Below are positions 14,289-62,612 of a DNA stretch of 64,000 bases, piece by piece. The notes below the pieces were generated by a model that searched no databases, had not been told where the DNA came from, and saw only the letters and a list, made by a program, of their open reading frames with translations. Where the stretch lies: the NCBI GenBank assembly GCA_021735655.1, contig JAIPGM010000001.1:224001-288000 (forward strand), read 5' to 3'. This DNA is from Candidatus Omnitrophota bacterium (GTDB lineage Bacteria; Omnitrophota; Gorgyraeia; Duberdicusellales; 4484-171). How positions within the stretch are numbered: the first letter of the stretch is position 1; each line of letters opens with the position of its first letter. A program made the position numbers and the translations under genes.

Positions 14289-14307
14289 CTAAAAAAAGGA
14301 GTCACAA

Positions 14308-14544
14308 TTGAAGGACAAAATAAGAAACTTTATCATTAGCAATTTTATGTTTGATGAGGGTAGTTTAGGAGATGATGATTTACTATTTGAGACAGGGATC
14401 ATAGATTCTATGGGATTTATCAAACTGCTCGCTTTCATTGATAAGACATTTAATCTATCTATGGATATGAGTGAAATAAGCATCGATAATTTTAATACTT
14501 TAAACAATATTGTTAAGAGCTTAGAGCGTAAGATTAATAGGTAA
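14308..14544 (+). CDS. Acyl/peptidyl carrier protein (DltC-like)
   Basis: 78 aa. 'GIIDSMGFIKLLAFI' is the DSx phosphopantetheine-attachment motif. Confidence 0.7.
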   Translation: MKDKIRNFIISNFMFDEGSLGDDDLLFETGIIDSMGFIKLLAFIDKTFNLSMDMSEISIDNFNTLNNIVKSLERKINR

Positions 14545-14571
14545 TTATTTTATAAAAAGGAGATTCGGAAT

Positions 14572-15717: not shown

Positions 15718-15718
15718 T

Positions 15719-17302
15719 ATGGAATACCGATTACCGACATTATTGCGGCAAAGCGCAAAGAGTCAACCTTTTAAAGTTGCCATTAGACAGGGCGAAGAAG
15801 AACTTTCATATGAAGATTTGAATTTGTTGAGTGATAAGTTGGCCTCTTGCTTAGTCGATAAAGGCCTAAAGGTTGGCGACAGAGTAGGAATATATATAGA
15901 TAAATCGATTGATGCTGTTATTGCTATATTTGGTATTTTAAAATCGGGCGGTTGTTATGTTTCTTTGGATCCTTTGGATAATTCCCGGAGGCAGACCTTA
16001 ATTGTTAAGGATTGTTCATTGAAATATTTGATTTCTTCTTCAAAAAAGTTACCATCTCTGGTTAAAATAATACGCGGTATAGATAGTCTAGAGTATATAT
16101 TTGTAGTTGACGCCAACAAAAAAGAAAGTAGCAGGGATTGGTGCGACATTAAGATGGTTTTTAAAAAGGAGATATTTAATTCAGATGTTAGCATTTCCCC
16201 AAGGTCGAGAAGATTAAAAGACAACAACTCGGCATATATACTTTATACTTCTGGTTCAACCGGAAAACCCAGAGGAGTAGAGATTAGTCATCGGGCTTCA
16301 CTTGCTTTCATAAATTGGGCCAATAAGTATTTTAATATTACTAAAGCCGACATTGTGGCGGCTCAGTCTCCGTTTCATTTCGACCTTTCCATTTTTGATA
16401 TTTTCGTCAGCATAAAGGCCGGCGCGACCATTTGTATTGTTCCTCAGTCTTTATCAATTTTTCCTAAATCTTTGGCAGATTTTATCGAGAGCCAGAAAAT
16501 TAGCACTTGGTATTCTACACCTTCGGTTTTAATCAAGCTTCTTTACTACGGTAATCTTCAGAAAAGGAATTTATCAGCCCTAAAAAGAATTATTTTCGCC
16601 GGTGAGGTATTTCCCCCAAAGCATCTGCATAAGCTAATGAAGATATTGCCGGGAGCTAAATACTATAATTTATACGGACCTACCGAAACGAATGTCTGTA
16701 CTTGTTATTTTTTAAAGCGTATTCCTAAGGTAGATAAACCGATCCCGATAGGGTGTCCTTGTCGCGGCCAATATATTTTCATAGTTGATAAGGCTGGCAA
16801 TCTTGTTAAAAACGGTCAATCGGGCGAATTATGTGTTAGCGGACCCACACTTATGCAGGGATACTGGAATAATTCTCAGGCAACCGAGAAAGCTATGATT
16901 AAGCTCAATTTTTTAAATAAAGCCAGTAAGGTATATAGAACTGGTGATTTGGCCAAAATTAGAAAAAACGGAGATATTCTTTATTGTGGCCGTAATGATG
17001 AAATGTTAAAGGTAAGGGGATATCGGGTTGAGCCGGCTGAAATTGAAGCAGTTTTGCATTCATGTCCGGGAATAAAAGAAGCAGCTGTGGTAGGAGTCTC
17101 AGCTGATGCAGCTGGGGACAGAATCAAAGCCGTGATTAGCCTAAAAACTAACTATTCTGTTTCTGAGAGTAAGGTAAAGCTTTTTTGTTCCAGGCAGTTG
17201 CCTTCCTATATGGTTCCTGCGGAAATATTTTTTAAAAAGTCGTTACCTCGGCTTTCTACCGGAAAAATTGATAGGAAGAAATTGAAAACAATTCGAAGAT
17301 GA
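15719..17302 (+). CDS. Adenylate-forming enzyme (AMP-dependent ligase, DltA/NRPS A-domain-like)
   Basis: Core adenylation motifs are present: 'YILYTSGSTGKPRGVEISH', 'YGPTE', 'YRTGDL' and 'GRNDEMLKVRGYRVEPAEIE'. ATG 15719 is preferred. The ORF track starts at 15695. Confidence 0.85.
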   Translation: MEYRLPTLLRQSAKSQPFKVAIRQGEEELSYEDLNLLSDKLASCLVDKGLKVGDRVGIYIDKSIDAVIAIFGILKSGGCYVSLDPLDNSRRQTLIVKDCSLKYLISSSKKLPSLVKIIRGIDSLEYIFVVDANKKESSRDWCDIKMVFKKEIFNSDVSISPRSRRLKDNNSAYILYTSGSTGKPRGVEISHRASLAFINWANKYFNITKADIVAAQSPFHFDLSIFDIFVSIKAGATICIVPQSLSIFPKSLADFIESQKISTWYSTPSVLIKLLYYGNLQKRNLSALKRIIFAGEVFPPKHLHKLMKILPGAKYYNLYGPTETNVCTCYFLKRIPKVDKPIPIGCPCRGQYIFIVDKAGNLVKNGQSGELCVSGPTLMQGYWNNSQATEKAMIKLNFLNKASKVYRTGDLAKIRKNGDILYCGRNDEMLKVRGYRVEPAEIEAVLHSCPGIKEAAVVGVSADAAGDRIKAVISLKTNYSVSESKVKLFCSRQLPSYMVPAEIFFKKSLPRLSTGKIDRKKLKTIRR

Positions 17303-17421
17303 AAAAAAACCATAAAACACTCATGGTAACAATTGTTCTCTGTGGTATTATATTTATAATCAGCTATATTTTATATTTTTTTATAAAGCCTCCGCTTGAA
17401 TTTATATATCAACAATTCTAG
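17299..17421 (+). CDS. DltX-like 40-aa membrane micropeptide
   Basis: Not in the ORF track. Its ATG overlaps the stop of the adenylation gene as ATGA. The translation is MKKNHKTLMVTIVLCGIIFIISYILYFFIKPPLEFIYQQF*. It has one transmembrane segment, and its C-terminal FIYxxF motif resembles my recollection of the DltX C-terminus (FIYNEF-like), which needs checking against a DltX model. Confidence 0.45.
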   Translation: MKKNHKTLMVTIVLCGIIFIISYILYFFIKPPLEFIYQQF

Positions 17422-17452
17422 GATGGCGAATCTTTTTTAAAGGCATGCTATT

Positions 17453-18748
17453 ATGAAGGATTACAATAAGGAGTCTCTTTTTACTGCAGCTGGAAAGTTT
17501 ATTTTTGGCACAGGTATCATCTTTTTACTGCTTTTTTTATTTTATCAGAAGTCATTAATTCTGTCTTTAGATCCTAATCCAAATTTGTCTGAAATTACAG
17601 TTGAGAAAATAAAACTTACCAGGCTTTATTTATTATCGATATCTTTGGTGTTGATTTTCATATCAGGGGCAGCAAAGATGTTGCCGGTTTTTAACCGTTA
17701 TATAAATCGAATAATGGCAATTAAACCAGTGCGGTATTTTTTGTTGATAATGCTGCCGATAGTTATTTTCGAACTATACTTTCAACCTTTAGCTTTGCAA
17801 AAACCGACAATTTTAATGCGGGATGATGATTTAATCTGGAAATTACGGCCAAATAGCGAATCTATATGGGCTGAAGCGATAGTAAAGATAAATTCCAAAG
17901 GCTTAAGGGGTCCCGAGTTAGATTACGCTAAACCGGCTGATACAAAAAGAATCCTTTATTTGGGCGATTCTATAACTTTTGGTTTTAGCTTGAAAAGCTA
18001 CGATCAAACATTTCCCTGTCAGGTTGAGGAAATTTTAGAGGAAGATAATAATAGAAAAGTTGAAACAATAAATGCCGGTGTGGGCGGTTATTCTCCCTGG
18101 CAGGAATATATCTATTTATCAAAAGAAGGTATTAACTATGATCCGGATTTAGTTGTAGTCGCTTTTACCTTAACCGATGTTAGTGAGAAGCTTGGCTTGA
18201 GACGATTCGGCGGCGACAGCGAAGGGGCTCAGCTGGCAGCTTCGGCTATTACGATATTTGATTGGTTAAGTAACAAAAGCCGCATTTTATATTTCATAAA
18301 GGAGGCGGTTACTAACCTAAGATTCAACGGCGATATTGAAAAAATGGTACCGGTTGAAGAAGGGCTTAAAATTACCCAGCTAATAGATGAAGCAAACGAT
18401 CCGGACATTAAAAATGCATGGGAGATTACCTTAAATAATCTTGGTAAAATATTCGATTTTTGTAAAAGTGGAAATGTCCCGGTAATATTAGTTATTTTTC
18501 CGGTAGCGTCTCAATTTGATGATGTTGAGAACATGTCAGGGCCACAACTTTTTGTGAGCAGGTTTGCTAGTAAAAAAAATGTTCTGTCATTGGACTTGCT
18601 GCCTTTGTTATCTCAGAGAGTCAAAAATAAAAAAGTAGACCTAGAAGATTATTTTTTGGGTCCACTTCACTTATCAGCTGAGGGAAATAAGGTAGTTGCT
18701 GAATTAATAGCTGACTTTATTAAGGAAAGTAATATTTTATATTTTTGA
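17453..18748 (+). CDS. Membrane-anchored SGNH/GDSL hydrolase-fold protein (DltD/AlgX-like)
   Basis: An N-terminal transmembrane helix is present. The GDS block is 'ILYLGDSITFGF', the Gly block is 'NAGVGGYS', and the C-terminal region has a DxxH-like motif. Confidence 0.6.
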   Translation: MKDYNKESLFTAAGKFIFGTGIIFLLLFLFYQKSLILSLDPNPNLSEITVEKIKLTRLYLLSISLVLIFISGAAKMLPVFNRYINRIMAIKPVRYFLLIMLPIVIFELYFQPLALQKPTILMRDDDLIWKLRPNSESIWAEAIVKINSKGLRGPELDYAKPADTKRILYLGDSITFGFSLKSYDQTFPCQVEEILEEDNNRKVETINAGVGGYSPWQEYIYLSKEGINYDPDLVVVAFTLTDVSEKLGLRRFGGDSEGAQLAASAITIFDWLSNKSRILYFIKEAVTNLRFNGDIEKMVPVEEGLKITQLIDEANDPDIKNAWEITLNNLGKIFDFCKSGNVPVILVIFPVASQFDDVENMSGPQLFVSRFASKKNVLSLDLLPLLSQRVKNKKVDLEDYFLGPLHLSAEGNKVVAELIADFIKESNILYF

Positions 18749-19620
18749 CTTTTATCAAAATGAGTAAAACCTTAAATATTGAAGATTTGGATAGGGCTGT
18801 ACTTAGGAAATTGGAAACTCTGCAGAGTATTTTTTCTGATATGGGAAGTGCTTTAATAGCCTATTCCGGAGGTGTAGATAGCACGCTTTTAACCAAGGTG
18901 GCCAAGGATGTTCTAAAAAGTAAGGCGGTTGCTGTGACTTCAGAGTCAGAAACTTATCCTTTACGGGAATCAAGGCAGGCTAAGGAATTGGCAAGGCAGC
19001 TGGGAATAAGGCATATTATTATTAATACCCGTGAACTAGATAATGAAGAGTTTTCTAAAAATTCACCTCAAAGATGTTATTTTTGCAAAAAAGAATTGTT
19101 TTCCAGACTTTTGGATTTAGCAAAACAGCATAGTTTAGATTATGTTGTTGAGGGCTCAAATCACGACGATCGGTCTGATTATCGGCCGGGCCTAAAGGCA
19201 ATAGAGGAACTAGGCATAAGAAGTCCTTTAAAAGAAGCCGAGCTAACCAAGAAAGAAATCAGAATACTTTCGAAGATGTTCGGTTTAAGCTCTTGGAATA
19301 AACCGTCTTTTGCCTGCCTATCTTCAAGATTCCCTTACGGAACTAAAATAACCAAAGATGGATTAATAAAGGTTGATCGGGCTGAGGGGGTGTTGCTTAA
19401 ATTTGGCTTTAGCCAGTTAAGAGTAAGAATACATGGGCCAATAGCAAGGATAGAGGTTCCCAAGGAAGATATTTCTTTATTTTTTAAGGCTGGTTTGTCA
19501 GACAGAGTTGTTGAAGAATTTAAAAAAATCGGTTTTTTCTATGTAACTTTAGATTTGGCAGGTTATGAAACTGGCAGTATGAATAAGCTGCTTAAGAGCG
19601 AGGATAAATTTGGATACTAA
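18745..19620 (+). CDS. larE: LarE-family ATP-dependent sulfur transferase (PP-loop)
   Basis: 'ALIAYSGGVDSTLL' is the PP-loop motif. Conserved Cys are present (CYFCKKELF, CLSSRFPYG). It sits directly upstream of larB and larC homologs. Confidence 0.75.
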   Translation: MTFIKMSKTLNIEDLDRAVLRKLETLQSIFSDMGSALIAYSGGVDSTLLTKVAKDVLKSKAVAVTSESETYPLRESRQAKELARQLGIRHIIINTRELDNEEFSKNSPQRCYFCKKELFSRLLDLAKQHSLDYVVEGSNHDDRSDYRPGLKAIEELGIRSPLKEAELTKKEIRILSKMFGLSSWNKPSFACLSSRFPYGTKITKDGLIKVDRAEGVLLKFGFSQLRVRIHGPIARIEVPKEDISLFFKAGLSDRVVEEFKKIGFFYVTLDLAGYETGSMNKLLKSEDKFGY

Positions 19621-20356
19621 AAGACTAAAAAAATTACTTCAGGATATAAAATCGGGCAAAAAAAATGTAGCCTCAGCTATGCGGGCATTAAAGTCTCTAC
19701 CTTTTGAGGATTTAGGTTTTGCTAAGGTGGATACTCATAGAGATTTACGTTGTGGATTCTCAGAAGTCGTATTCTGTCAGGGGAAAACTTTAAACCAAGT
19801 AACAACTATCGTTAAAAAACTTTCCTTGGTTAACTCTTGTGTTTTGGCAACTAAAGCCGATAAAAAGGTTTATAGGGCTATAAAACGAATCAGAAAGAAT
19901 GCTGTTTATTATGAACAGGCAAAAATAGTAGTTATTGGAAAAAATAAAAAGTTAAAGTCAGAAAAAACTATTTTGGTTGTCAGTGCCGGTACTTCGGATA
20001 TTCCAGTAGCCGAAGAAGCCGCGGTTACAGCCATGGTTTTAGGCAATAAAGTTCAAAAGGTATATGATGTGGGGGTCGCCGGTGTACACCGGTTGCTTAA
20101 ACATAAACAAAAACTGTTTAAAGCCAGTGTGATTATAGTTGTTGCCGGAATGGAGGGGGCCTTGGCAAGTATAGTCGGAGGGTTGGTGGATAAGCCGGTT
20201 ATAGCTGTTCCTACCAGTGTGGGTTATGGAGCAAGCTTTAAGGGACTTTCGGCATTACTTACTATGCTTAATTGCTGTGCTCCGGGAATTACAGTGGTAA
20301 ATATAGATAATGGATTTGGGGCAGGGTACGCTGCTAGTATAATAAATCGACAATGA
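19610..20356 (+). CDS. larB: LarB-like NaAD carboxylase/hydrolase (PurE-fold)
   Basis: An N-terminal LarB-specific region (LKKLLQDIKSG...) precedes the PurE-like 'ILVVSAGTSDIPVAEEAA' domain. Confidence 0.7.
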   Translation: MDTKRLKKLLQDIKSGKKNVASAMRALKSLPFEDLGFAKVDTHRDLRCGFSEVVFCQGKTLNQVTTIVKKLSLVNSCVLATKADKKVYRAIKRIRKNAVYYEQAKIVVIGKNKKLKSEKTILVVSAGTSDIPVAEEAAVTAMVLGNKVQKVYDVGVAGVHRLLKHKQKLFKASVIIVVAGMEGALASIVGGLVDKPVIAVPTSVGYGASFKGLSALLTMLNCCAPGITVVNIDNGFGAGYAASIINRQ

Positions 20357-21534
20357 AGATAGCTTATTTTGATTGTTTTTGTGGGATAAGTGGGGATATG
20401 ATTTTGGGGGCATTTTTGGACTGTGGGTTAGATATTGAAGATTTGCGAAAAGAATTGAATAAGTTAAAGTTATCCGATTATCAAATAAAAATTGAGAAAG
20501 TAAAAAAAGGTGTTATCTCAGGTACTAAATTCAGCGTTGACATAAAAAAACAAAAAATCGAGCGTAGCTTAAAAGATATCCTTAAGATTATAGGAGAAAG
20601 TAATTTGGATGCTGATATAAAAAAATCATCCAGAGAGACATTTGAGTTGTTAGCAAAGGTAGAAGCCGAAATACATAATCAAGATATAGAAAAAATACAT
20701 TTTCATGAAGTAGGGGCAGTTGATTCTATAGTAGATATAGTGGGAGCTTTTATAGGAATAAAACTTTTAGGTATTGAATGTATTTATTCGTCAAAGATTC
20801 ATGTCGGGGATGGCTTTGTTAGGTGTCAGCATGGTACTTTGCCTGTTCCTTCGCCGGCCACGATAGCTTTGCTAAAAGGCATTCCGATTTATTCAAAAGG
20901 GATAGACTCTGAATTGGTTACGCCTACTGGAGCTTGCATTATAAGGAAAGTTTCTAAAGGGTTCGGTCTCTTACCAGACATGGAGATAAAAAAAATAGGC
21001 TATGGCGGAGGAAGAAAAGATTTGTCAATTCCTAATCTTTTAAGAATTTTTATAGGGGAAACCGAGGAGGATAATATATACGATAATGATGAAGTAATAC
21101 TTATTGAGACAAACATAGATGATATGAGCCCCGAGGCAGTAGGCTATATTTCAGAAAGATTGCTTAGCCGAGATGCTTTGGATGTTTTCACTACTCCAAT
21201 TTTTATGAAAAAAAACCGGCCGGCAGTAACTTTAAGTATTTTGACCGAACCTAGCAAGCTCGACGACATGCTTTCTTGTTTATTCTCGGAAACAACTACC
21301 TTTGGTATAAGGATGCGTGGTTTTAAGCGGAGAAAACTTTTACGCAAGATTGCTATGATTGATACAAAGTTTGGTCCGATTGCGGTTAAAGTTGGCCGGA
21401 CTAGTGAAGGGATAAAGACTATCGCTCCTGAATATGAATCTTGTAAACAAGTTGCTCAAAAGGAAAATATTCCTTTTAAAAATATATACAGCGAAGTAAA
21501 GAAAATAGCTGATCAAGTTTTAAAAGAAACCTAA
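20353..21534 (+). CDS. larC: LarC-like nickel insertase (DUF111)
   Basis: 'MKIAYFDCFCGISGDMILGAFLDCGL' is the typical DUF111/LarC N-terminus. The length, about 390 aa, is appropriate. Confidence 0.8.
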   Translation: MKIAYFDCFCGISGDMILGAFLDCGLDIEDLRKELNKLKLSDYQIKIEKVKKGVISGTKFSVDIKKQKIERSLKDILKIIGESNLDADIKKSSRETFELLAKVEAEIHNQDIEKIHFHEVGAVDSIVDIVGAFIGIKLLGIECIYSSKIHVGDGFVRCQHGTLPVPSPATIALLKGIPIYSKGIDSELVTPTGACIIRKVSKGFGLLPDMEIKKIGYGGGRKDLSIPNLLRIFIGETEEDNIYDNDEVILIETNIDDMSPEAVGYISERLLSRDALDVFTTPIFMKKNRPAVTLSILTEPSKLDDMLSCLFSETTTFGIRMRGFKRRKLLRKIAMIDTKFGPIAVKVGRTSEGIKTIAPEYESCKQVAQKENIPFKNIYSEVKKIADQVLKET

Positions 21535-21545
21535 AGGCTTAGCTG

Positions 21546-22760
21546 ATGTCGGTGAAACTTAAGCGTCTATTTGGATCATTTGTGAGATTGTGTTCATTTA
21601 TTGTGCTTATCTTTAGGCCTTACGCCGATAACGAGATTCAGGCATCTAGTGAGCCTTTGCCCGGTGAGCATAAAAATATACCGGCACCTTTCTATCCGCC
21701 GAAAAATTCCAAAATTATATCTTTACCACAACAGAAACAAGTGGTTACGACTGAAGTTTCGATAATAAAAGGTTATAATTTATATTCTATTACCAGAGAA
21801 GCTATCGATGCAATCGGTGGTATGAAAAGTATAGTAAAAAAGGGTAATAAAGTATTTATAAAGCCTAACTATGTAAGTGGCGGCCTTAATGGGCATGATC
21901 CAGTTACAACCGGAGAAATTGCTCATCCGGAAGTAGTTGCTTCGGTAGCGGAAGAATGCTTGAAGGCCGGAGCTAAAGAAGTAATAATTGGTGAGTGGGT
22001 CGAGCGTCCTTATAAAATAAACTTTGGTGGCGAGGAAGGAAAAGATGGTGCTCAAGTTAAGCATTTAATCGATTTATTAAATAAAAAATATGGACATAAG
22101 ATTTATTTGATAAATTTAATGGACCATACTACTAATTTTAAATACTTTCCTTCAAGGACTAAATTAGGCTTTTTGGCAATTCCTGACATAGTAGCTGAAG
22201 CAGATGTAATTATCTCGATCCCTTCTCTGAAAACTCATCATAAACCATGCCCGGTAAGTTTAGGTATGAAGAATTTTATGGGTATTATGCCTTCTATTTT
22301 TTATGGCGAGCCGCGGTATAAATTGCATGAAGCTGGAGTTCATCAGGTAATAGTGGACATTAACCAAGCTTTAAAGCCATCTTTAGTTGTTATCGATGGA
22401 AGCTTTGGGATGGAAAAGGGTGGTGCCTCAGTGTTTTTAGGAGGCAAACCAGTAGATGTTAGCAAGCGTATAGGAGGGTTTTTGGTGATTGCCGGGAGAG
22501 ATCCGGTGGCGACAGACGCAACTGCTACTCGGTTGATTACTAAAGATTGGGGGCCGAGACCTGAAGATTCCAATTTGGGTACTCCTTGGTATGTACATCA
22601 TCTTCGGATGGCTAGCGAACAAGGATTGGGGGTTTTGGATGCTTCGCGAATAATTATTAAGGGTGAGAGCTTAAAAAGCGTTGAAATGAATTGGCAGGCT
22701 TCGGATGATGGAGTATATCCTGAAATTAAGAAAGATGAAAATCCTAAAGACAACAATTAA
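21546..22760 (+). CDS. DUF362-like domain protein with an N-terminal hydrophobic segment
   Basis: 'KGNKVFIKPNYVSG' and 'SIPSLKTHHKPCPVSLGMKNFMG' match my recollection of DUF362 blocks. It sits immediately downstream of larBCE. Confidence 0.45.
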   Translation: MSVKLKRLFGSFVRLCSFIVLIFRPYADNEIQASSEPLPGEHKNIPAPFYPPKNSKIISLPQQKQVVTTEVSIIKGYNLYSITREAIDAIGGMKSIVKKGNKVFIKPNYVSGGLNGHDPVTTGEIAHPEVVASVAEECLKAGAKEVIIGEWVERPYKINFGGEEGKDGAQVKHLIDLLNKKYGHKIYLINLMDHTTNFKYFPSRTKLGFLAIPDIVAEADVIISIPSLKTHHKPCPVSLGMKNFMGIMPSIFYGEPRYKLHEAGVHQVIVDINQALKPSLVVIDGSFGMEKGGASVFLGGKPVDVSKRIGGFLVIAGRDPVATDATATRLITKDWGPRPEDSNLGTPWYVHHLRMASEQGLGVLDASRIIIKGESLKSVEMNWQASDDGVYPEIKKDENPKDNN

Positions 22761-25259: not shown

Positions 25260-27194
25260 ATGATTAAGTTTTTATATCAGGAAATGTACCAGCGCAGAAA
25301 TATTATCGCAATTTTAGTCATTATGCTTATTGTCGGAATGTTCTATTTTCCGACGATAAAGGATATCGATTCTACAATTATAAGCGAGGATGACTGGTTT
25401 GGTTTTTATTACTATGCGGGCATATCAAGATTAACAGCCTTGAAATATCATCAGTTGCCGTTGCGTACTCCTTATCTAGGCGGAGGGTACCCTTCGATTG
25501 CTCACCCTTTCGATTATACCCTAAGCCCTTTTTTCTTTTTTATTTTATTGTTTGGGGAAGTAGCAGGATTAAGGTTGATGGTGTACTTTATTTTTATGTT
25601 TGGTTCTTTGGGGATGTTTTACTTTACTAGATATGTTTTGAAATACAATCTCATGGGAGCTATTTTCTCTTGCTTGACTTTTTCTCTCTGCAGTTGGGGG
25701 GCTTTTGAGGTAGTTGACGGAAATATCCCTAAGATATTTTGTTATCTTTTGCCTTGGCTATTTGCTTTTTTGCTGCAATCTAAAAAAGATAAGCGATTCT
25801 TAATCCTTGCTTGTTTAGTTTTGAGTCCGATTCTGACCCTATCTGGTTTATCTTTTATCCCGGTAGTGCTGGCTTTGTTTTTATTAGCCTGCTTTTATGC
25901 CGTCAGTATAAATAAGGGGTTTAAGTTTAAAATCAGAGGATCGTATATAGCTTTTTTTCTGGCCATAATAATCGGAACCTGTCTTTTATTTGCTATTAAA
26001 GTCATTCCGATGTTTGAACTTTATAAAATGCGCACAGAGTATATTCATTTGCCATACGAGAATTCTTATTCTGCGATTTCCCGAGCCACTAAGGCCTTTG
26101 GCGCTTGTTTGGATATGGAATTACTTAAAAAGTCCTTGTTGGATAAGAGCTTTCGTGGATATTCAACAATGTATTTAGGGTATCTTCCACTCGTTTTTAT
26201 GTTTTTATCGATTTTAATCTATGCAAAAAAAAATATGCGCTACATATTGCTTCTGATCGTATTTGCCCTCATTCAGTTTGGATCGAGAAGTCCCCTGGAT
26301 TTATTTAAGATATTTTGGCAGATTCATCCGTCAGTTCATGGGATATGGAGGCTTAATAAATATTTTGGTTTTTTTATTCCCTTTTTTATTTCTATAATTG
26401 CCGGGAGGTTTTTCTTAATTTTTAGACATAAAAAGATAATTAAACCGCTGGTATTTATAATCATCGGGATTAGTGCATATCATATGTATTCGAATAATAG
26501 ATTGATTTTTAGTCCTATGGTTTACGAAAGAAAGCCGTCTTTGGAGGTGTATGATTCGTTTTTTCCGGTTGAGATAGAAAACACTACCATAGAAAGAGCT
26601 TGGCCGGGATTTCATGAGGTTAAAGACATACGGTCCTATCAGCCTTTTTGGTTGCTGTTACGTCAAAATATAGGAGTGGTGAATTTTAATTGGTCGGGGA
26701 ATTTAAACCTTTCTCAATACGCTCAGCCTAAATATATACTTCCTACTGGTAAACAGGTAGGAGAAATTGTCTATGTCCGTGGTTACGAACAGTTATCCCA
26801 AGATATAAATGTACCAATTGATTTAATGACTGTAGCAAGGGACAACCCTCATTATCAAGGAGAAGTATTTTTTTTGAAAAAAAACAACAAGGTGGACTCG
26901 ACATATCTTAGTCCTAATATAGTAAAAGCTGATGTTAGTCTTAGAAGTCCTGATCGGCTTATTATAAATCAGAATTACCACAAGAGTTGGACAGTGGACA
27001 AGGGCAAGCTGATAAATCACAAAGGCTTGCTGGCAGTTGAGCTTGTAGATCAAGGTGTTCATCAGGTGACATTTAGATATGTTCCTCTAGATTTTTATTT
27101 AGGCGCGATTGTAAGTTTTTTTACACTTATAGGTATGTTGGCTTACTTTTGGTTCGTGCCTGGGAAAAAAATTAGTTTCAATAAAGCTAAATAA
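25260..27194 (+). CDS. Large polytopic membrane protein, YfhO-like (tandem paralog 1)
   Basis: 644 aa with many transmembrane helices. The C-terminus is '…FRYVPLDFYLGAIVSFFTLIG…'. Confidence 0.45.
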   Translation: MIKFLYQEMYQRRNIIAILVIMLIVGMFYFPTIKDIDSTIISEDDWFGFYYYAGISRLTALKYHQLPLRTPYLGGGYPSIAHPFDYTLSPFFFFILLFGEVAGLRLMVYFIFMFGSLGMFYFTRYVLKYNLMGAIFSCLTFSLCSWGAFEVVDGNIPKIFCYLLPWLFAFLLQSKKDKRFLILACLVLSPILTLSGLSFIPVVLALFLLACFYAVSINKGFKFKIRGSYIAFFLAIIIGTCLLFAIKVIPMFELYKMRTEYIHLPYENSYSAISRATKAFGACLDMELLKKSLLDKSFRGYSTMYLGYLPLVFMFLSILIYAKKNMRYILLLIVFALIQFGSRSPLDLFKIFWQIHPSVHGIWRLNKYFGFFIPFFISIIAGRFFLIFRHKKIIKPLVFIIIGISAYHMYSNNRLIFSPMVYERKPSLEVYDSFFPVEIENTTIERAWPGFHEVKDIRSYQPFWLLLRQNIGVVNFNWSGNLNLSQYAQPKYILPTGKQVGEIVYVRGYEQLSQDINVPIDLMTVARDNPHYQGEVFFLKKNNKVDSTYLSPNIVKADVSLRSPDRLIINQNYHKSWTVDKGKLINHKGLLAVELVDQGVHQVTFRYVPLDFYLGAIVSFFTLIGMLAYFWFVPGKKISFNKAK

Positions 27195-29128
27195 TGAGAG
27201 TAGATAAAAAGTATCTTCTAAGTGTATTACTGATAGTTATTATGGTAGCGATGGCTTATTTTCCTTTATTAAAAAATATAAATTCTATGATCACCAGCGA
27301 CAACGATTGGTCTTTTTATACTTTTTATGCTTCTGCCTATCGCACTAGTGTGCTTGAATATAAACAACTTCCGATACGAACTCATCTCTTAGCCGGAGGT
27401 TATCCTTTGATAGCTCATCCTCGTGATTGGAGCTTGAACCCTTTGGCTTTTTTAATCCTTATATTTGGTGAAATCGCCGGACTAAAGCTAAGCATGTTTA
27501 TTTTATTTCTTTTGGGTGGCCTAGGGATGTTTTATTTGGCTAAGAATGTTTTGGGCTATAACTACCTAGGTGCCTTATTTTCTTCATTTTTATATATATT
27601 TTCTAGTTGGGGAGCTTACCATACTGTTCAGGCAAATTTTAGCGTTCTTTTAAGCTATATGCTCCCTTGGGTGATTGCTTTTTATCTTAAATCTATACAT
27701 AAAAGAAAATTTATTATATACGCTTCATTGGCTTTGGCTATGGTAATTACGCTTGGTTCCCTTCTTGTCATACCGACAATTATTTTCTTTTTCATTTTTT
27801 CCCTTATGAAATCTTTAAGCATTCAGAAGCGGTTGAGGTTGAGGTTTAATTCAGGGTATTTAAAGAATTTTACGATGATAGTTTTATGTGCTGTTTTGTT
27901 GTGTTCGGTTAAAATATTGCCTATGGTTGGATTGTTGAATTCACGAACCGATGTCTATTTTCATGGCGCCGGTGAAGAAACCACTTATGATACGATAGAT
28001 CGAAACCATTTTTTTACTTCCGAAAAACTCATTAAGTCAATTTTTGATAAAGGGTACCAACATCGTTTAAAAATTTACTTTGGCTATATTCCTATAGTTT
28101 TTTTTCTGCTAGCTTTATGTTTTTATGGCAAGAAGATGTTTTCGTTTTTCTTTCCGTTCATATTTTTTACCATAGTTATGTTCGGGCCCTATAGCCATCT
28201 AGATTTATATCGATTATTATGGAATTTACACCCTTTCATTCGAGCGATTGTTGAACAAGATAGGTACTTTTTGCCATTTGTTATTTTTCCGGTTGCCCTT
28301 ATATCGGGTAGCGTTTTTCTTTTACTGAAAAGACTAACGAGATTTCGGCCGTTTTGGGCTATCGCAGTAGGAATACTTATAATCTATAGCTTTTTTGATA
28401 CATTTTTTGTTCAGCAAAATATTATGAAGCGGATAGTATATAAGCCAGTTCCGAATACAGCTTCTTTCATTCGGTCACCAGAATCATTTTTCCAGATTGC
28501 CTTTGATGATCCGATTCAAGATATCGAAGAAGAAAAAGGAGAGTTGTCAGTTTGCAGCTCTTCTAATTCCCCTAAGCCTTGTCGGCCGCAGGACTATGTA
28601 TTAATTAAAGATTATACTAAAATATTTCCCCTGATTCGTCAGAATATCGGCGTGGTAACTTTTTGTGGATATGCTGAAAGCTTAGACATAGCCGAATCAG
28701 CAATTCCTAAATATATCATTAATAAGAATAACTACTATGAGCCATTTAGCAATATACATCAATTTAGGTCTATAGCTGATAAACTTGCCGTTAATCCTAA
28801 TTACCGGGGTGAGGCCTTTGCTTTAGGTAAGGACAATAAAATAGAGATTGTGTCACTGGGGCCGACGCGAATAGAAATAAACGCTAATTTTTTAACGCCT
28901 GATACTCTGATTATAAATCAAAATTACCATAGAAGCTGGAAGTCAAACACAGGATTGATTGCTAATCATCAGGGGCTTTTAGCGGTAGATTTACCCGAAG
29001 GAAGGCATGATATTGTATTGCGATATGTTCCTTTAGATTTTTATTTAGGCGCGGCAATTAGCCTGTTGGCTTTGCTGGGTATTGGTGGTTATATTATTTT
29101 TTTAAAGAATGAGCAGGATGGAGAATAA
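27194..29128 (+). CDS. Large polytopic membrane protein, YfhO-like (tandem paralog 2)
   Basis: 644 aa and clearly paralogous to the 25260 gene (…LPIRTHLLAGGYPLIAHPRDW… / …LIINQNYHRSW…LRYVPLDFYLGAAIS…). The start overlaps the upstream stop as ATAATG. Confidence 0.45.
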   Translation: MRVDKKYLLSVLLIVIMVAMAYFPLLKNINSMITSDNDWSFYTFYASAYRTSVLEYKQLPIRTHLLAGGYPLIAHPRDWSLNPLAFLILIFGEIAGLKLSMFILFLLGGLGMFYLAKNVLGYNYLGALFSSFLYIFSSWGAYHTVQANFSVLLSYMLPWVIAFYLKSIHKRKFIIYASLALAMVITLGSLLVIPTIIFFFIFSLMKSLSIQKRLRLRFNSGYLKNFTMIVLCAVLLCSVKILPMVGLLNSRTDVYFHGAGEETTYDTIDRNHFFTSEKLIKSIFDKGYQHRLKIYFGYIPIVFFLLALCFYGKKMFSFFFPFIFFTIVMFGPYSHLDLYRLLWNLHPFIRAIVEQDRYFLPFVIFPVALISGSVFLLLKRLTRFRPFWAIAVGILIIYSFFDTFFVQQNIMKRIVYKPVPNTASFIRSPESFFQIAFDDPIQDIEEEKGELSVCSSSNSPKPCRPQDYVLIKDYTKIFPLIRQNIGVVTFCGYAESLDIAESAIPKYIINKNNYYEPFSNIHQFRSIADKLAVNPNYRGEAFALGKDNKIEIVSLGPTRIEINANFLTPDTLIINQNYHRSWKSNTGLIANHQGLLAVDLPEGRHDIVLRYVPLDFYLGAAISLLALLGIGGYIIFLKNEQDGE

Positions 29129-53074: not shown

Positions 53075-54058
53075 ATGGATATTTCAGTAATAATTCCATC
53101 GTATCGACCAGCTGACATAAAAGAATGTTTGAAATCTATTTTTGAATCTGATCTTAGGCCTTGTGAGATTATCTTGGTAGATGATTGTTCAACTCTTGAT
53201 TATTTCAGAGAAATAGATAGTTTTTGCCAGATAATTAAGTTGAAAGAACACGTCGGTCCGGCCAAAGCCAGAAATATTGGTGCTTGTCAAGCAAAAGGGG
53301 ATATTTTTTGTTTCATTGATTCCGATGTTAAAATATTTAGCAATACCTTGAGATTAATAAGTGATTCATTTCAATCTTTACCAGAAATTGCTGCCGTTCA
53401 AACTGCATGCACAGAATATTGTAGATTCACGAATTTTGCAAGCCAATATCATAATTTATACCTATATTTTCACATTGAAGCAATCAGGTGTAAATATATT
53501 AGGACTTTCATCGGAAATTGTTTTGCAGTAAAAAAAGAAGACTTTGTTTCGGTAGGAGGGTTTAATGAAAATATTAAAAATGCAAGCGTCGAGGATGGTG
53601 ATTTTGGTATGCGACTGTCTGAGCAGGAAAGAATAATATATCTAAATAAAAACATTAAAATTGAGCACAGAAGTTATATTAAATTACGAGGCGTACTAAA
53701 AAGAATGTTTATTCAATCCCAAGATAAAGTGTATACTTTAATGAAAAATAAAAGTTTATTTAAATTTTCTCCGGATAAAACTCCTCACTCGAAGGAAAAA
53801 ATATTTTCAGTATTATTGTCGCCTTTGTTGCTGATCAGTTCCATTATTTTAATTTTTGCTCCAAAAACGTATGTAATTTTTCTCTCAGCCTTATTGCTAT
53901 ATTTATTGTCTAGCAGGCAGTTTATCTATTTTACCTTGAAATCCAAAGGGATAATGTTTGCAATTAAAGCTGCTGTTTTTTATTACCTTAATTGCTTAGT
54001 TGCTTTCGTTGGCATAACCTGGGGTGTAATCAAGTTTGGGGGGGGTAATATTATCTAA
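53075..54058 (+). CDS. Glycosyltransferase family 2 with a C-terminal membrane anchor
   Basis: 'ISVIIPSYRPADIKECL…IILVDDCS', 'FIDSDV' and 'GGFNE'. The C-terminal helices are transmembrane. Its stop overlaps the next start as TAATG. Confidence 0.75.
   Translation: MDISVIIPSYRPADIKECLKSIFESDLRPCEIILVDDCSTLDYFREIDSFCQIIKLKEHVGPAKARNIGACQAKGDIFCFIDSDVKIFSNTLRLISDSFQSLPEIAAVQTACTEYCRFTNFASQYHNLYLYFHIEAIRCKYIRTFIGNCFAVKKEDFVSVGGFNENIKNASVEDGDFGMRLSEQERIIYLNKNIKIEHRSYIKLRGVLKRMFIQSQDKVYTLMKNKSLFKFSPDKTPHSKEKIFSVLLSPLLLISSIILIFAPKTYVIFLSALLLYLLSSRQFIYFTLKSKGIMFAIKAAVFYYLNCLVAFVGITWGVIKFGGGNII
54038..54045. repeat. Homopolymeric G8 tract in the last codons of the GT2 gene, 13 nt before the coupled rSAM start
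   Basis: The sequence is tttGGGGGGGGtaat and encodes …FGGGNII*. G8 is rare in this AT-rich sequence. Confidence 0.9.
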
Positions 54059-56982: not shown

Positions 56983-57133
56983 AGGCCTTTCGACTTAAAG
57001 GTTAGGGAAATTTTTTAAGAAATACGATTAAAAAAGTATTTGATTCTATATAGAATATGATAAAATTAAGGGATAAAGAAGTGTGTTTTTATATTAGATG
57101 CACAATTTACAATGCTAAAGGGAGGTGTCCAAA

Positions 57134-57886
57134 ATGATTAGGACCATGGAAACTTTATGTTTTGCGGCTTTGATTTTTGCAATAACATTTGCTTTTACTC
57201 CATTAGCTTTAGCTTATGATTTAAGTAAGTATTACCCTTTAAATGAAGGTGATAGTTGGGAGTATTTAACAAGCGGAATAGGCTACGTTGAGGGTGGAGC
57301 AGATAAGGCAGAATTTTCCGATATGATTGAAGTAGATAAAATAGAATCAAAAGAATCTATTTCCGGTAAAAGGACCATGGTAAAGGTTTCGGGAGCCTTA
57401 GAGGAAAAAGAATGTTTGGCTGTAGACTCAGAAGGACTAAAACTGTACAAGTTAATAGATGGTCCAGGTGGTTATGATATATTTACCCCGCCGTTCATGC
57501 AGTTGGCAAATCTTGCAGTTGGAGAGAGTAAAACTTTCTTAAGCAATGCAATCGGGTATGGTGATCGCTCAAGTGAAGGAGCCAGACTGAATACAAATAC
57601 GATAACATTGGAATCAGTGGAAAGAGTAGAAGTTCCCGCAGGATTATTTGATGATTGCCTTAAATTTACGTCGACGGGTGAAAGAGCCTACGCAGATGGC
57701 AATTATGAAAATATTGAGTCTACCGTTTGGCTTGCTTTAGGGGTAGGTGTAGTTAAGGCTGATTATATTTATATCGAACATGATTTTTCTTCAGGCGAGG
57801 ATAGTACTACTACCAACAAGCGAAATTTGGTTTCAGCAAAGGTAAATGGTCAACAAATCGGAACTCCAAAGGAAAGTCAAGAATAA
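57134..57886 (+). CDS. Exported hypothetical protein
   Basis: AAGGGAGG lies upstream of the ATG at 57134. The N-terminus is MIRTMETLCFAALIFAITFAFTPLALA, a signal peptide. The ORF track starts at a GTG at 57125. Confidence 0.5.
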   Translation: MIRTMETLCFAALIFAITFAFTPLALAYDLSKYYPLNEGDSWEYLTSGIGYVEGGADKAEFSDMIEVDKIESKESISGKRTMVKVSGALEEKECLAVDSEGLKLYKLIDGPGGYDIFTPPFMQLANLAVGESKTFLSNAIGYGDRSSEGARLNTNTITLESVERVEVPAGLFDDCLKFTSTGERAYADGNYENIESTVWLALGVGVVKADYIYIEHDFSSGEDSTTTNKRNLVSAKVNGQQIGTPKESQE

Positions 57887-57899
57887 TAAGGCCAGCGTG

Positions 57900-57936
57900 C
57901 AAGTTTTAGCTAATGAAACTTGATAATTTTTTTATT
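57900..57936 (+). terminator. Rho-independent terminator
   Basis: An 8-bp stem, CAAGTTTT (57900-57907) paired with GAAACTTG (57915-57922, one G·U pair), encloses a 7-nt loop. It is followed by ataaTTTTTTTaTT. It lies 14 nt after the stop of the upstream gene. Confidence 0.55.
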
Positions 57937-57986
57937 GCAGTTTCATAAATCCTTCTATACGATTCAAATTCAATATTACAATTTAT

Positions 57987-57995
57987 GGGGGGGGG
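57987..57995. repeat. Homopolymeric G9 tract in the intergenic region upstream of a GT4 gene
   Basis: The sequence is atttatGGGGGGGGGttaat. It is located about 120 nt upstream of the ATG at 58117 and downstream of the terminator. Confidence 0.9.
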
Positions 57996-58116
57996 TTAAT
58001 CCGATCAACATGTGAAGTTCCTCATGAATTGCAGTCTTATCAAAATACGCATAAACATAAAATACGAATTAATAAAGATGTTAAGCTATATATAGTTGAT
58101 AGTTGTAGGGCGAAAA

Positions 58117-59220
58117 ATGAAAAAAATTCTGGTTTTTAACGCTGGAGCTTATATCTACGGAGCAGAAAGAGGGTTAATTAATTTTATTAGAACTTTGTCT
58201 GATAAATTTGAAATAACGGTAGTCTTGCCTTCCCAAGGCCCCCTTTCTAAAAAAATCGAAAAATTAAATGTATCTTTAAAAATATTTCCGATACCGATCC
58301 TTAAAATCTCGCTTTCACCGCTATATTATATTTTTTTTCCTTTTCATTTTATTTTTTCCGTTATTTATTTTAGCATTTATGCAATCCGCAAAGATATTGA
58401 AATAATTTGTAGTAATTCTTTACTTTTAGTTTTTCCGGCTATTGTTGCTAAATTTACCAAAAAAAGACATATCTGGTATTTAAGAGAGTTTCTGCCTTCT
58501 AGTTTTTTGAATAAAGCTCTAGGGGCATTCATTATCAGATTTTCAAACCAAATAATATGTCAATCTCAAGCTATTAGGGAAGCCTTGCTTGGCAAAGAAA
58601 GGGGCATTATTATTTATGAACCTTTAAATGCTACGGACTATAAAATCTACAAATCAGATCTTGCAAGAAGTGAGCTAAATATCCCTATAAAATCAACGGT
58701 TATTTCAATAATTTCTCGAGTGCATCCTTCTAAGGGACAGTATGAATTTATAGTTGATATTAAAAGGACATTAAAGAAAAATCCCAACATCCTTTTGGTT
58801 ATCGCCGGTGATATATCGCCGAACAATTTAAGAAATCGTTTATATAAAGCAAAAATAGAAAAATTGATAGAGGGGGATACTCTAAAAAATGTAGTCCTTT
58901 TAGGTTTTAGAGATGATGTTGATAGGATACTTTCTTTAAGCAATATTTGCGTTTTTCCTTTTAAAAGAAAAGAACCGTTTGGAATTTCTGTAGCTGAAAG
59001 TTTAACTTTTGGTAAAATAACTTTTTTTCCTCAGGTTGGAGGTCTAAAAGAAGTACGTGATATCTTTGGTCGGGGAAACGATTTTAGTATAGATAGGATT
59101 TGTGAGATAGCCTCAAACTTTGAACCAGCACGAGTAGAAAAGCTCCAAGAATTATATATCCCTGAAGAGCTTTCTATCGCGACATACAAAAATAAACTTA
59201 TTCCTATTTTTGAAAATTAA
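58117..59220 (+). CDS. Glycosyltransferase family 4 (GT-B)
   Basis: The EX7E-type C-terminal block 'FKRKEPFGISVAESLTFGKITF' is present. ATG 58117 was chosen (MKKILVFNAGA…). The ORF track starts at 58096. Confidence 0.7.
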   Translation: MKKILVFNAGAYIYGAERGLINFIRTLSDKFEITVVLPSQGPLSKKIEKLNVSLKIFPIPILKISLSPLYYIFFPFHFIFSVIYFSIYAIRKDIEIICSNSLLLVFPAIVAKFTKKRHIWYLREFLPSSFLNKALGAFIIRFSNQIICQSQAIREALLGKERGIIIYEPLNATDYKIYKSDLARSELNIPIKSTVISIISRVHPSKGQYEFIVDIKRTLKKNPNILLVIAGDISPNNLRNRLYKAKIEKLIEGDTLKNVVLLGFRDDVDRILSLSNICVFPFKRKEPFGISVAESLTFGKITFFPQVGGLKEVRDIFGRGNDFSIDRICEIASNFEPARVEKLQELYIPEELSIATYKNKLIPIFEN

Positions 59221-60348
59221 ATGAAGCCGTTTAAAAAAAAGATACTTTTTATTATTACCCACCTTGAATTGGGAGGAGCTCAGGGTCAGTTGCTTTTGCT
59301 TGTAAAAAATCTAGATAGAAACAAGTACTCACTGTATTTATCTTCCGGAGACCAGGGCTATCTCAAGGAAGAATTTTTAAAACTCCCATATTTACATATA
59401 AAATTAATTCCGGAGTTGATAAGAAATATTAATCCTTTCTACGATTTTATTGCTTTTTTGAAATTATATTTCTATATCAAAAAAAATAAATTCGATATAG
59501 TTCATACTAATTCCCCTAAAGCTTCTATTTTGGGAAGATGGGCGGCTTATCTGGCAGGCGTAAAAGGTATTATTTACACTGTACACGGTTGGCCTTTTCA
59601 TAAATTCATGAATCCGATAGTGCATTATTTATATATTTTAATTGAAAAAGTGACCGCCAAGATTACAAAAAAGATAATAGTTGTTTCTGAAGCAGACCTT
59701 AGAACAGGAATAGAGAATGAAATCGCCGATAAAAATAGAATTTTTCTTGTTCATTATGGCATAGAAATAGATAAGTTTAATAAGGTGTATGATCAAAGAA
59801 GCGAAATTTTTCCTGGTAATACTGTTTTTACAATCTCTTCGTTTAAGCCTCAAAAGGATATTTTTAATTTTTTGAAATTAGCAAAAATGCTTCTTGATAG
59901 AAATCCTCAGTTGAATTTTATCATAGCCGGAGACGGACCTTTGCGTAAGAGAGTGGAGAAAAGGATAGAGTTACTAGGGCTAAGCGGTAAGGTGCACCTA
60001 AAGGGCTGGTCTGACGATGTTTCTCTTTTATTTAAAATGGCATCGTTGTTTGTGCTCACTTCTTTATGGGAAGGTCTACCAGTGTCTTTGATTGAAGCGG
60101 TTGTATCAGGAGTTCCGGTGGTAGTCACTAATACCGGTGGCATTTTCGATATAGTGAAAAGCGGCAATCAGGGGGTGGTCGTCAATCCAACCAATATTTT
60201 AGAAATAGAGAGCGCTTGTTGGGAAATATTGAAAAACTATGATAATTGGAGTACAATTGTCAGGAATGGCCGGAAAAAGTTAAATTTAAAATATTGGTCT
60301 TTTGCTAGAACGCTGAGAGAAATAGAAAATATTTATGCTACTATTTAA
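59221..60348 (+). CDS. Glycosyltransferase family 4 (GT-B)
   Basis: 'ILFIITHLELGGAQ', 'LTSLWEGLPVSLIEAVVSGVPVVVTNTGG' (an EX7E-like motif) and 'HTNSP' are present. Confidence 0.8.
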   Translation: MKPFKKKILFIITHLELGGAQGQLLLLVKNLDRNKYSLYLSSGDQGYLKEEFLKLPYLHIKLIPELIRNINPFYDFIAFLKLYFYIKKNKFDIVHTNSPKASILGRWAAYLAGVKGIIYTVHGWPFHKFMNPIVHYLYILIEKVTAKITKKIIVVSEADLRTGIENEIADKNRIFLVHYGIEIDKFNKVYDQRSEIFPGNTVFTISSFKPQKDIFNFLKLAKMLLDRNPQLNFIIAGDGPLRKRVEKRIELLGLSGKVHLKGWSDDVSLLFKMASLFVLTSLWEGLPVSLIEAVVSGVPVVVTNTGGIFDIVKSGNQGVVVNPTNILEIESACWEILKNYDNWSTIVRNGRKKLNLKYWSFARTLREIENIYATI

Positions 60349-61339
60349 GTTGATAGAGCTGTTAGCGCTTTTCTTTTTTGCTTTTACGCTCAGTATATTT
60401 TTTCTTGCTATTTCAAGAAAGCTATCTTTAAAACACAATCTTTTTATCAGAGATAGAAATATACCTTATATTGGGGGGGTTAGTTTTTCTCTGGTTTTTA
60501 TCATTTGCCTTATTTTATTTTCTTTTATTAAAGCTAAAGTTGTGCCTTTTCAGTTTATTTGGATAATTACCTTTTCATTTATATTGTTGTTGGTTGAGTG
60601 GATAGACGATTTGAAGGATTTAAAGCTTAAGGCCAGAGTCCTGATTCAAATCATTTTTGTATTTTTATTTCTCCTTTACGGAAAGCAAATCCAGATTTAT
60701 TTTTTACCAAACTGGGCTAATTATCTTATTTCTTTTTTATGGATAGTAGGGATAACCAATGCTTTTAATCATCTTGATGTCGCTGATGGGCTATGTGCAG
60801 GTATAGCTTTGATTGTTAGCTTGGCATGTTTAGTGATAGCTTTAAAGACTGGAAGCTTTTTATTGTTTGTTTTTGTTGCTCTTTTTGGGGTTCTTTTGGC
60901 TTTTCTTTTGTTTAATTTCCCTCCGGCTAAAATATTCATGGGTAATGCTGGAAGTCACTTTTTAGGCTTCTTGTTTGCAACCTTAAGCATTTATGGAGAC
61001 TATGCCAGCTTCGATAATATTTTAGCCATTTTTTTGCCCCTGTTGGTTCTAGGATTGCCGATTGTTGACACATTTTATCTCATTGTGGTGCGTGCTAGTA
61101 AGAAAATCTCTCCTTTACGGAAAAGTGATGATCACATCATTTTACGTTATTTGTTAAAGGGCTATTCTTACAAGCGGTCTTTGGCAAGTATTTATTTTTT
61201 AACTGCGGTTTGGTGTTTAAGTGCAATTCTTTTATTGAATGGTCCAGGCCTATGGTGTTTAATTTTTCTGATTATTGCCTTTTTGGGAACAATTCTTATG
61301 ATCATTAAGGCTAATGTCAGTAAATTTTCTAGTTGTTAG
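60335..61339 (+). CDS. Polyprenyl-phosphate N-acetylhexosamine-1-phosphate transferase (MraY/WecA family)
   Basis: 'WIVGITNAFNHLDVADGL' matches the MraY/WecA NxxNxxDGxDGL block. It is a polytopic membrane protein. It contains a G7 tract at 60473-60479. Confidence 0.75.
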   Translation: MLLFKLIELLALFFFAFTLSIFFLAISRKLSLKHNLFIRDRNIPYIGGVSFSLVFIICLILFSFIKAKVVPFQFIWIITFSFILLLVEWIDDLKDLKLKARVLIQIIFVFLFLLYGKQIQIYFLPNWANYLISFLWIVGITNAFNHLDVADGLCAGIALIVSLACLVIALKTGSFLLFVFVALFGVLLAFLLFNFPPAKIFMGNAGSHFLGFLFATLSIYGDYASFDNILAIFLPLLVLGLPIVDTFYLIVVRASKKISPLRKSDDHIILRYLLKGYSYKRSLASIYFLTAVWCLSAILLLNGPGLWCLIFLIIAFLGTILMIIKANVSKFSSC

Positions 61340-62524
61340 TCCGAGGATTATCCACCAGAGAAAAGCTACTTGAGGAATAAAGAAAGAGAAATCGACAATA
61401 TTATGCAGGAGAAACGACAACCCAGCTGCGAATATAGCTAATGATAGTAATGTGTTTTTCGAAGCTATAAGTATTTTTAAGTTCATTCTTACATAATTAA
61501 AAACTATCACTAGCCAGCTTAAAATTCCTATCATTCCAAGCTCACCCCAAATTTGAAGATAAGAGTTGTGGCTATAGCGAGACCCGGGCAAATAAAAATT
61601 GCCTAAACCGACGCCGACAAAAGGGTGTTGTTTGATTATTTCAGTTGTTCCGCGCCAGTAAGCGACTCTTTGGTGAATAGAAAAAAAGGGGTTGGTTATT
61701 TTTTCCGGATTGTTCAGACGTAGATAAAAAACAATTATTGATAATAAGCCGATTACAAGAATAGCGGTAATGCTTTTTTTGTTTATTTTTTTACGCCAAA
61801 ATAGTAGAAAAGGCAACAGACTAAGCAAGGATAACCATCCGCCGATAGATTTAGTAAAGAAGAAGGCAATAAAAGAAATAAGGACGCAAAAAAAGGCCAG
61901 GTATTTATCAAATACCCATTTAGCTTCTTCTTTTTTTTGTAAAAGTAGGCCAAGGCTGATGAAGATTAGTATTATTAGATAACCGGCTAAAAGATTGGGG
62001 TTAATGAAAGGGGCCAAGGCTCTTGATTGCGATAATAGCTCTTTTACAAAATAGTTATTAAATAATGCCCAAAGGCTGTAAATGGCCACAAAGCAGCAAC
62101 TCAGGAGGAGTGTTTTTATCAGAACTATTTGATTGTTTTTTGGGGTAAGCTTAGCGAAGTAAAATAATAACAGAATGATAAAAAAGTCATAAACTTTATT
62201 TAGATTTGATACAAGATCAGAAACAAACAGTGCTGAACCAAATAGGTTTAAGAAAAAAACTATGATTATTAAGTTAAAAAAACTTTTCTTGATATTTTTT
62301 CGGAAGATAAAAATATATAAAAGGCTAGAGCAAAAAATTACAAAATTAACTGTTGAATCAAGCATCCTAGAGCCAAATATCGGCAGAAGCGGGTAAAGGA
62401 AAATACAGCTAACTATAATTTTCCATATTGCTGACTGTAGTTTTAATTTCTGTTTTTCAGTCAGAGGCCTGAGCGGTGAATTAAGTTTATTCGCTATTGA
62501 TTTGGTTAAAGTAATTATTGGCAT
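61259..62524 (-). CDS. O-antigen ligase/polymerase-like membrane protein (Wzy_C domain)
   Basis: 'HNSYLQIWGELGMIGIL' matches the Wzy_C signature (H.H..y…E.G..G). About 10 transmembrane helices. Its 3' end overlaps the convergent MraY-like gene by 81 nt. Confidence 0.6.
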   Translation of the reverse strand: MPIITLTKSIANKLNSPLRPLTEKQKLKLQSAIWKIIVSCIFLYPLLPIFGSRMLDSTVNFVIFCSSLLYIFIFRKNIKKSFFNLIIIVFFLNLFGSALFVSDLVSNLNKVYDFFIILLLFYFAKLTPKNNQIVLIKTLLLSCCFVAIYSLWALFNNYFVKELLSQSRALAPFINPNLLAGYLIILIFISLGLLLQKKEEAKWVFDKYLAFFCVLISFIAFFFTKSIGGWLSLLSLLPFLLFWRKKINKKSITAILVIGLLSIIVFYLRLNNPEKITNPFFSIHQRVAYWRGTTEIIKQHPFVGVGLGNFYLPGSRYSHNSYLQIWGELGMIGILSWLVIVFNYVRMNLKILIASKNTLLSLAIFAAGLSFLLHNIVDFSFFIPQVAFLWWIILGLTTRKFTDISLNDHKNCSQKGNNQKN

Positions 62525-62612
62525 ATTTTTTAGGTTTGTTACTATTATAACTAGAATTTGACATATAGTAAAAAGATTTATATACTTTAAAGGTAGATTT
62601 AAAAGGTAAAAC

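Follow-up and report, generated by a model that had tools for sequence, protein, structure and literature searches.

The 64-kb stretch of DNA analysed here (hereafter the window) comes from a Candidatus Omnitrophota MAG, that is, from an uncultivated bacterium, and carries a cassette of glycosyltransferase and related genes preceded by a non-coding gap of 230 nt in which a run of nine G (G9) is found. The GC content is 35% in the window and 31% in the gap. The genes and elements around the tract are the following:

57125-57886, + strand: orphan secreted protein K9L86_00620, upstream of the gap (deposited as a hypothetical protein of 250 aa with its start at 57134)
57900-57933, + strand: weak intrinsic-terminator-like element (hairpin at 57900-57922, ATAA, T7 at 57927-57933)
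57954-57982, + strand: promoter-like site a, TCTATA-17-TACAAT (8 of 12; consensus match only)
57987-57995, + strand: G9 homopolymer, non-coding (direct read and run scan)
58069-58096, + strand: promoter-like site b, TTAATA-16-TATAGT (9 of 12; consensus match)
58107-58110, + strand: Shine-Dalgarno-like AGGG, 6 nt before the ATG at 58117 (direct read)
58117-59220, + strand: GT4 glycosyltransferase, first gene of the cassette (Pfam; 56% identical to the orthologue in the related locus L083)
59221-60348, + strand: second GT4 glycosyltransferase (Pfam; 60% identical to the L083 orthologue)
60335-61339, + strand: WecA/MraY-family polyprenyl-phosphate sugar-phosphate transferase (Pfam Glycos_transf_4; it holds a G7 run)
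61259-62524, - strand: Wzy_C protein (O-antigen ligase/polymerase-like), convergent, last gene of the cassette (Pfam; 35% identical to the orthologue in the related locus L084)

The start of the first GT4 gene at ATG 58117 is secure, because its translation matches the deposited protein MCF7907372.1 (Candidatus Omnitrophica MAG, 341-kb contig) at 100% identity over 367 aa and its orthologues begin with MKKI. A GT4/GT4/MraY-like operon starting at 58117 had been proposed in a preliminary description of this DNA, and the Pfam assignments of the genes at 58117, 59221 and 60335 (GT4, GT4, and Glycos_transf_4, respectively) are in full accordance with it. On the other side of the gap, K9L86_00620 has a signal-peptide-like N-terminus and a weak, sub-threshold DUF3108-like match. 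This gene is inserted between a GT2 gene and the conserved cassette, and the relatives do not have it at that place. Its homologues among 5.8 billion protein clusters are just two, both distant (35-36% identity) and both on contigs of <2 kb, so that this search gave no support to the idea that K9L86_00620 and the G9 tract had moved as a unit. The hairpin at 57900-57922 has 9 bp, is AU-rich with two G-C pairs (-8.0 kcal/mol, z -2.0), and is followed by a 4-nt spacer, AUAA, and then by U7 (57927-57933). A consensus terminator scan returned no terminator-like sites, and this hairpin fails the criteria of the scan. The element is a plausible yet weak terminator; of the Rho-independent terminator formerly placed at 57900-57936, the AU-rich hairpin followed by U7 has been retained, although it is not one that a consensus scan accepts.

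Several observations on the wider glycan locus can be added. A RiPP-like trio is found at 1025-2653, consisting of a PqqD-family ORF (1025-1288), a radical SAM/SPASM ORF (1288-2442) whose best NCBIfam match is the ACGX-system rSAM, below cutoff, and a 57-aa peptide (2480-2653) that has a good Shine-Dalgarno sequence and ends in ...AGCGCCGCCCCW. Further along, at 13092-18748, there is a Dlt-like acylation module with genes for an MBOAT protein (13092), an acyl-CoA dehydrogenase (14572), an AMP-ligase (15695) and a GDSL hydrolase (17453), in which an apparent "gap" at 14308-14544 encodes a 78-aa PP-binding carrier protein. Genes for LarE-like, LarB (AIRC), LarC (Ni_insertion, E 3e-143) and DUF362 proteins are present among the glycosyltransferase genes at 18745-22760; this is a nickel-pincer cofactor set, unexpected in such a context. 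Two tandem ORFs at 25260-29128, of 644 aa each and with no Pfam match, are possibly paralogues. Radical SAM genes, several of them with SPASM or B12-binding domains, number at least 11 over 1288-55164, in a strand-coherent locus of ~60 kb that also includes at least six GT2, four PMT_2/STT3-like and three GDSL genes; such a density of radical SAM genes is unusual for a glycan locus.

The tract itself (GGGGGGGGG, nine G) occupies exactly positions 57987-57995 of the + strand in non-coding DNA, as established by reading the sequence and by a run scan of the window. In this respect the nine intergenic G reported earlier have been found where they were said to be, flanked by the ORF end at 57886 and by the ATG at 58117. 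The stop of the orphan secreted-protein gene is 100 nt ahead of the tract, and the GT4 ATG follows the tract after 121 nt, the first G being 130 nt ahead of that codon. The tract is contained in no stop-free frame of at least 120 aa, and the exact 20-mer spanning it occurs a single time in the window. No other G or C run in the 64 kb is as long, the only others of at least 7 nt being a G8 at 54038-54045 and a G7 at 60473-60479. Run expectations were derived analytically from the composition of the window and from the observed run-length series (103, 25, 4, 1, 1 and 1 runs for lengths 4-9; P(G|GGG)=0.26). From composition, between 0.03 (order 0) and 0.15 (order 1) G runs of at least 9 nt are expected in 64 kb, and extrapolation of the run-length series gives ~0.15 per window, in agreement with the order 1 value. 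The tract is unusual for non-coding DNA here, because by our own calculation ~0.006 such runs are expected in the 2,907 non-coding bases of the window (G fraction 0.185); in the non-coding DNA of a whole genome of 2-3 Mb, about 0.5 to 1 would occur by chance. The two shorter runs do not reach the usual thresholds, and coding accounts for both. The G8 specifies F-G-G-G in the GT2 gene at 53075-54058, seven codons from its stop and 12 nt ahead of the radical-SAM start at 54058. The G7, in the 5' part of its gene, corresponds to the Gly-Gly of NIPYIGGV in the WecA-like protein, a motif conserved in an orthologue as NIPLLGGV. The clustering of the three runs within 6.5 kb (own estimate, p ~0.03) was considered as evidence and judged weak, the G8 and the G7 being coding.

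An error of assembly or sequencing in the MAG, such that the true run differs from nine, is a very improbable explanation of the tract. Homopolymers are error-prone on several sequencing platforms. Errors of this kind have been noted, for example, for 454 data (PMC2651432). On the other hand, the nearby coding G8 and G7 are in frame, every ORF in the window is long and unbroken, contrary to what systematic errors in homopolymers would produce, and the tract is not at a contig end but in mid-contig (341 kb).

In phasome screens (PhasomeIt), poly-G/C tracts of at least 9 nt are regarded as hypermutable, and those within 200 bp of an ATG are assigned to the transcriptional class (PMC5953494). The G9 tract falls within both limits, in view of its length and of the 130 nt between its first G and the ATG. 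A translational switch by frameshift is excluded, because the tract is non-coding and because no length from G6 to G13, with three frames examined for each, joins the GT4 frame. Translation might also be affected through an upstream ORF beginning at ATG 57985, whose length would depend on that of the tract: with nine G it reads MGGG-stop, with eight it has 9 codons, and with G7, G10 or G13 it has 51 codons, crosses the GT4 ribosome-binding site and start, and ends at 58139, so that it could couple or occlude GT4 translation. However, no Shine-Dalgarno-like sequence precedes ATG 57985, unlike what is seen for real genes here, the ORF has neither homologues nor coding signal, and it would need transcription from upstream of the tract, all of which makes this mechanism extremely unlikely.

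With regard to transcription, a consensus scan detected no sigma-70-like -35/-10 pair bracketing the tract, the candidates ending at 57982 or starting at 58069. The number of promoter-like sites in the scan (1 vs. 2.2 ± 1.6 in shuffles) is not above chance. In the same window, a near-consensus sigma-70 promoter, TTGACA-17-TATACT (11 of 12), is present at 62558-62586, within the divergent gap of 88 nt that precedes the GH2-like gene at 62613, an indication that canonical promoters are in use in this Omnitrophota genome. Site b starts 73 nt past the tract, and its predicted transcription start is at ~58103. Site a is closer, with 4 nt between its TACAAT (57977-57982) and the tract, and the start predicted from it is at ~57989, inside the run. 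If so, the tract would be the transcript start, and its length, or reiterative addition of G, would determine where a leader of 120 nt begins. A precedent exists in the tprL gene of Treponema pallidum, in which transcription starts at the fourth nucleotide past a poly-G whose length ranges from 7 to 11 within isolates, and in which the output of a reporter differs between G8 and G10 (PMC7864442). This alternative is nevertheless improbable: the -35 hexamer of site a is poor (3 of 6 matches), an extended -10 is lacking, hexamers resembling a -10 are frequent in AT-rich DNA, and the leader predicted from this start is not more structured than shuffles (z +1.72).

The preliminary description had proposed a slipped-strand phase-variation switch, in which changes in tract length would alter promoter spacing or the 5' structure of the transcript. 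Neither of these mechanisms is supported, since the consensus scan puts the tract in no -35/-10 spacer, an Rfam search of the gap yielded no family (the lone match, with E=9, being at chance level), and the gap and the putative leader are not more stably folded than shuffles (z +0.35, +0.26 and the value given above for the leader). Regulator sites and repeats were likewise sought in the gap, with the result that just short two-copy matches at chance level appeared, none of them significant in flanking the tract; they include ATTGCAGT at 57934 and 58028, and another one that corresponds to an alternative pairing of the 3' arm of the terminator. Sigma-54 (GG-N10-GC) and ops/JUMPstart-like motifs are absent from the gap by eye.

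Comparison with relatives has provided a further view of the tract. The protein clusters of the two genes flanking it have one member on one contig each, and a scan of metagenome contigs in which both 14-nt flanks had to match exactly, with the tract replaced by an N{3,18} gap, gave 0 matches. The nearest GT4 relatives are at most 56% identical; in a scan of a genome collection with the GT4 sequence, the best match (49% identical) was in another Omnitrophota MAG. The GT4-GT4-WecA-Wzy cassette is conserved in relatives (56, 60, 51 and 35% identity, respectively, to L083/L084), but the context upstream of it is unconserved. In the related loci L083, L084 and L085, a GT4-GT2 pair runs straight into the GT4 start, and in 16 of the 20 orthologous loci GT4 is preceded by a same-strand ORF at a gap of no more than 75 nt, with overlap in 10. 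No G/C run of at least 7 nt exists within 400 nt upstream of GT4 in the 20 orthologous loci. In 264 kb of related loci such runs number 11, every one inside a coding frame, and besides the G9 tract no intergenic run of this kind is present in 328 kb of Omnitrophota DNA. The tract and its spacer are thus lineage-specific and lie at a synteny breakpoint on the 5' edge of the cassette, because the orthologous loci are devoid of the tract and the upstream context is unconserved.

Two candidates for length variation among relatives were rejected. The G6/G6/G9 series of loci L018-L020, some 202 nt upstream of GT4, is a run of Gly codons inside the frame of the upstream GT2 gene, and its alignment is gap-free, the differences being substitutions and not indels. 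The differences between L083 and L084 in the gene calls for Wzy and an epimerase, which might have been taken for frameshift variation, concern DNA that is 100% identical.

A more elaborate possibility is distal transcriptional phase variation. In such a mechanism, slippage in the tract would alter the helical phasing or the distance of an upstream activator, a bending site or an UP-like site with respect to a core promoter at ~58069-58096, and would in this way tune the glycan-initiating cassette stochastically. The length of the tract and its position at <200 bp from the ATG agree with the transcriptional class of PhasomeIt (PMC5953494), a run like this is improbable by chance in non-coding DNA, the downstream genes build surface glycan according to Pfam, and the presence of the weak upstream terminator means that the gap probably needs its own promoter. 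Nonetheless, 73 nt separate the tract from the -35 of the candidate promoter, the tract is flanked by no regulator site or significant repeat (short two-copy matches only), no equivalent has been seen in the 20 orthologous loci or elsewhere between genes in the 328 kb, and no paper in the collection searched links the Omnitrophota with phase variation. Altogether, a distal switch of this type is unlikely.

Known systems help to place the tract. SSR-using species, such as Campylobacter and Neisseria, concentrate many tracts in their glycan loci. The genome of Campylobacter jejuni is AT-rich as well, and its capsule, LOS and flagellin-glycosylation loci combine tracts on the G9 scale with clusters of glycosyltransferase genes. 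The poly-G tracts of C. jejuni are mostly intragenic, act by frameshift and are many per glycan locus, in contrast to the G9 tract, which is non-coding, does not create a GT4 frame at any length, and is the single run of at least 9 nt in the 60-kb glycan super-locus. In other cases the tract modulates expression from outside the -35/-10 spacer, as do the TAAA repeats of nadA in Neisseria and the poly-C of fim in Bordetella, the latter located between the activator site and the -10. The G9 tract, too, is outside such a spacer and might work by changing how upstream sites are phased; however, nadA and fim have defined sites (for NadR/IHF and BvgA, respectively), and near G9 no such site is recognisable. 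In Neisseria meningitidis, the poly-G of porA and the poly-C of opc and fetA are, like G9, G/C homopolymers of about 9 nt or more, at most 200 bp from the ATG of a gene for a surface structure (PMC5953494, PMC7864442). In this species, the tract is situated between -35 and -10 (porA) or overlaps the -35 (opc), whereas G9 is outside any recognisable core promoter; moreover, the length polymorphism and its effects on expression have been demonstrated, and Neisseria genomes have 15-19 poly-G tracts each (PMC5953494), whereas G9 is the lone tract seen. Similarly, a poly-G of about 9 nt is found upstream of envelope-related genes of T. pallidum (tprE/G/J, tprL and tp0126). The start of tprL adjoins its poly-G, and the -10-like hexamer ahead of G9 would put a start in or next to the tract. 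In T. pallidum, however, lengths of 7-11 have been measured, reporters respond to length and the tracts recur at paralogues, whereas in the case of G9 there is no recurrence in relatives: no comparable tract is present at the 20 orthologous GT4 loci and the related runs are all coding. By the consensus scan, neither is G9 placed in a core promoter.

The reading favoured here, with a probability of roughly 0.45, is that the G9 tract is a genuine lineage-specific homopolymer, slippage-prone but incidental, and not positioned as a switch. A non-coding run of nine G does exist at this position, and relatives lack it. The cassette would probably be transcribed by read-through past the weak terminator, and/or from the predicted sigma-70-like promoter ~75-110 nt downstream of the tract. 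With such transcription, gain or loss of one G would shift distal upstream DNA alone, and no -35/-10 spacing, no frame and no structured leader would be affected. In this scheme, we infer both the location of the promoter and the lack of a regulatory effect of the tract. Several considerations count against an incidental homopolymer. The expectation of ~0.006 makes the run rare by chance in non-coding DNA of ~30% GC, the tract is within the limits of the phasome screens and precedes a type of gene that is often phase-variable, and the promoters are predicted by consensus only. In addition, modulation of promoters by distal repeat tracts is known from other species. In the absence of selection, long runs of G tend to shrink, so the persistence of this one hints at a recent origin or at selection. 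A true switch at G9 is possible but unlikely, and the tract is only a weak candidate for an on/off switch.

The significance of the tract depends on this distinction. So far it is one isolated homopolymer that reaches formal screening thresholds only, and its value lies in the cheap check that it offers at the level of reads. The claim that it is a working contingency switch, the first case of SSR phase variation in Omnitrophota, by which GT4-GT4-WecA would be turned up or down from a promoter-distal position or from the transcription start, is doubtful, and at most it would add one case to a well-known class of SSR switches. Members of the Omnitrophota have been described as ultra-small cells with host-dependent traits (PMC10066038). 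If the switch were real, it would point to host, prey or phage pressure on the cell surface, the tract would be a simple marker of population heterogeneity in metagenomes, and stochastic variation of surface glycans would extend to the Omnitrophota, an uncultivated and putatively host-dependent group.
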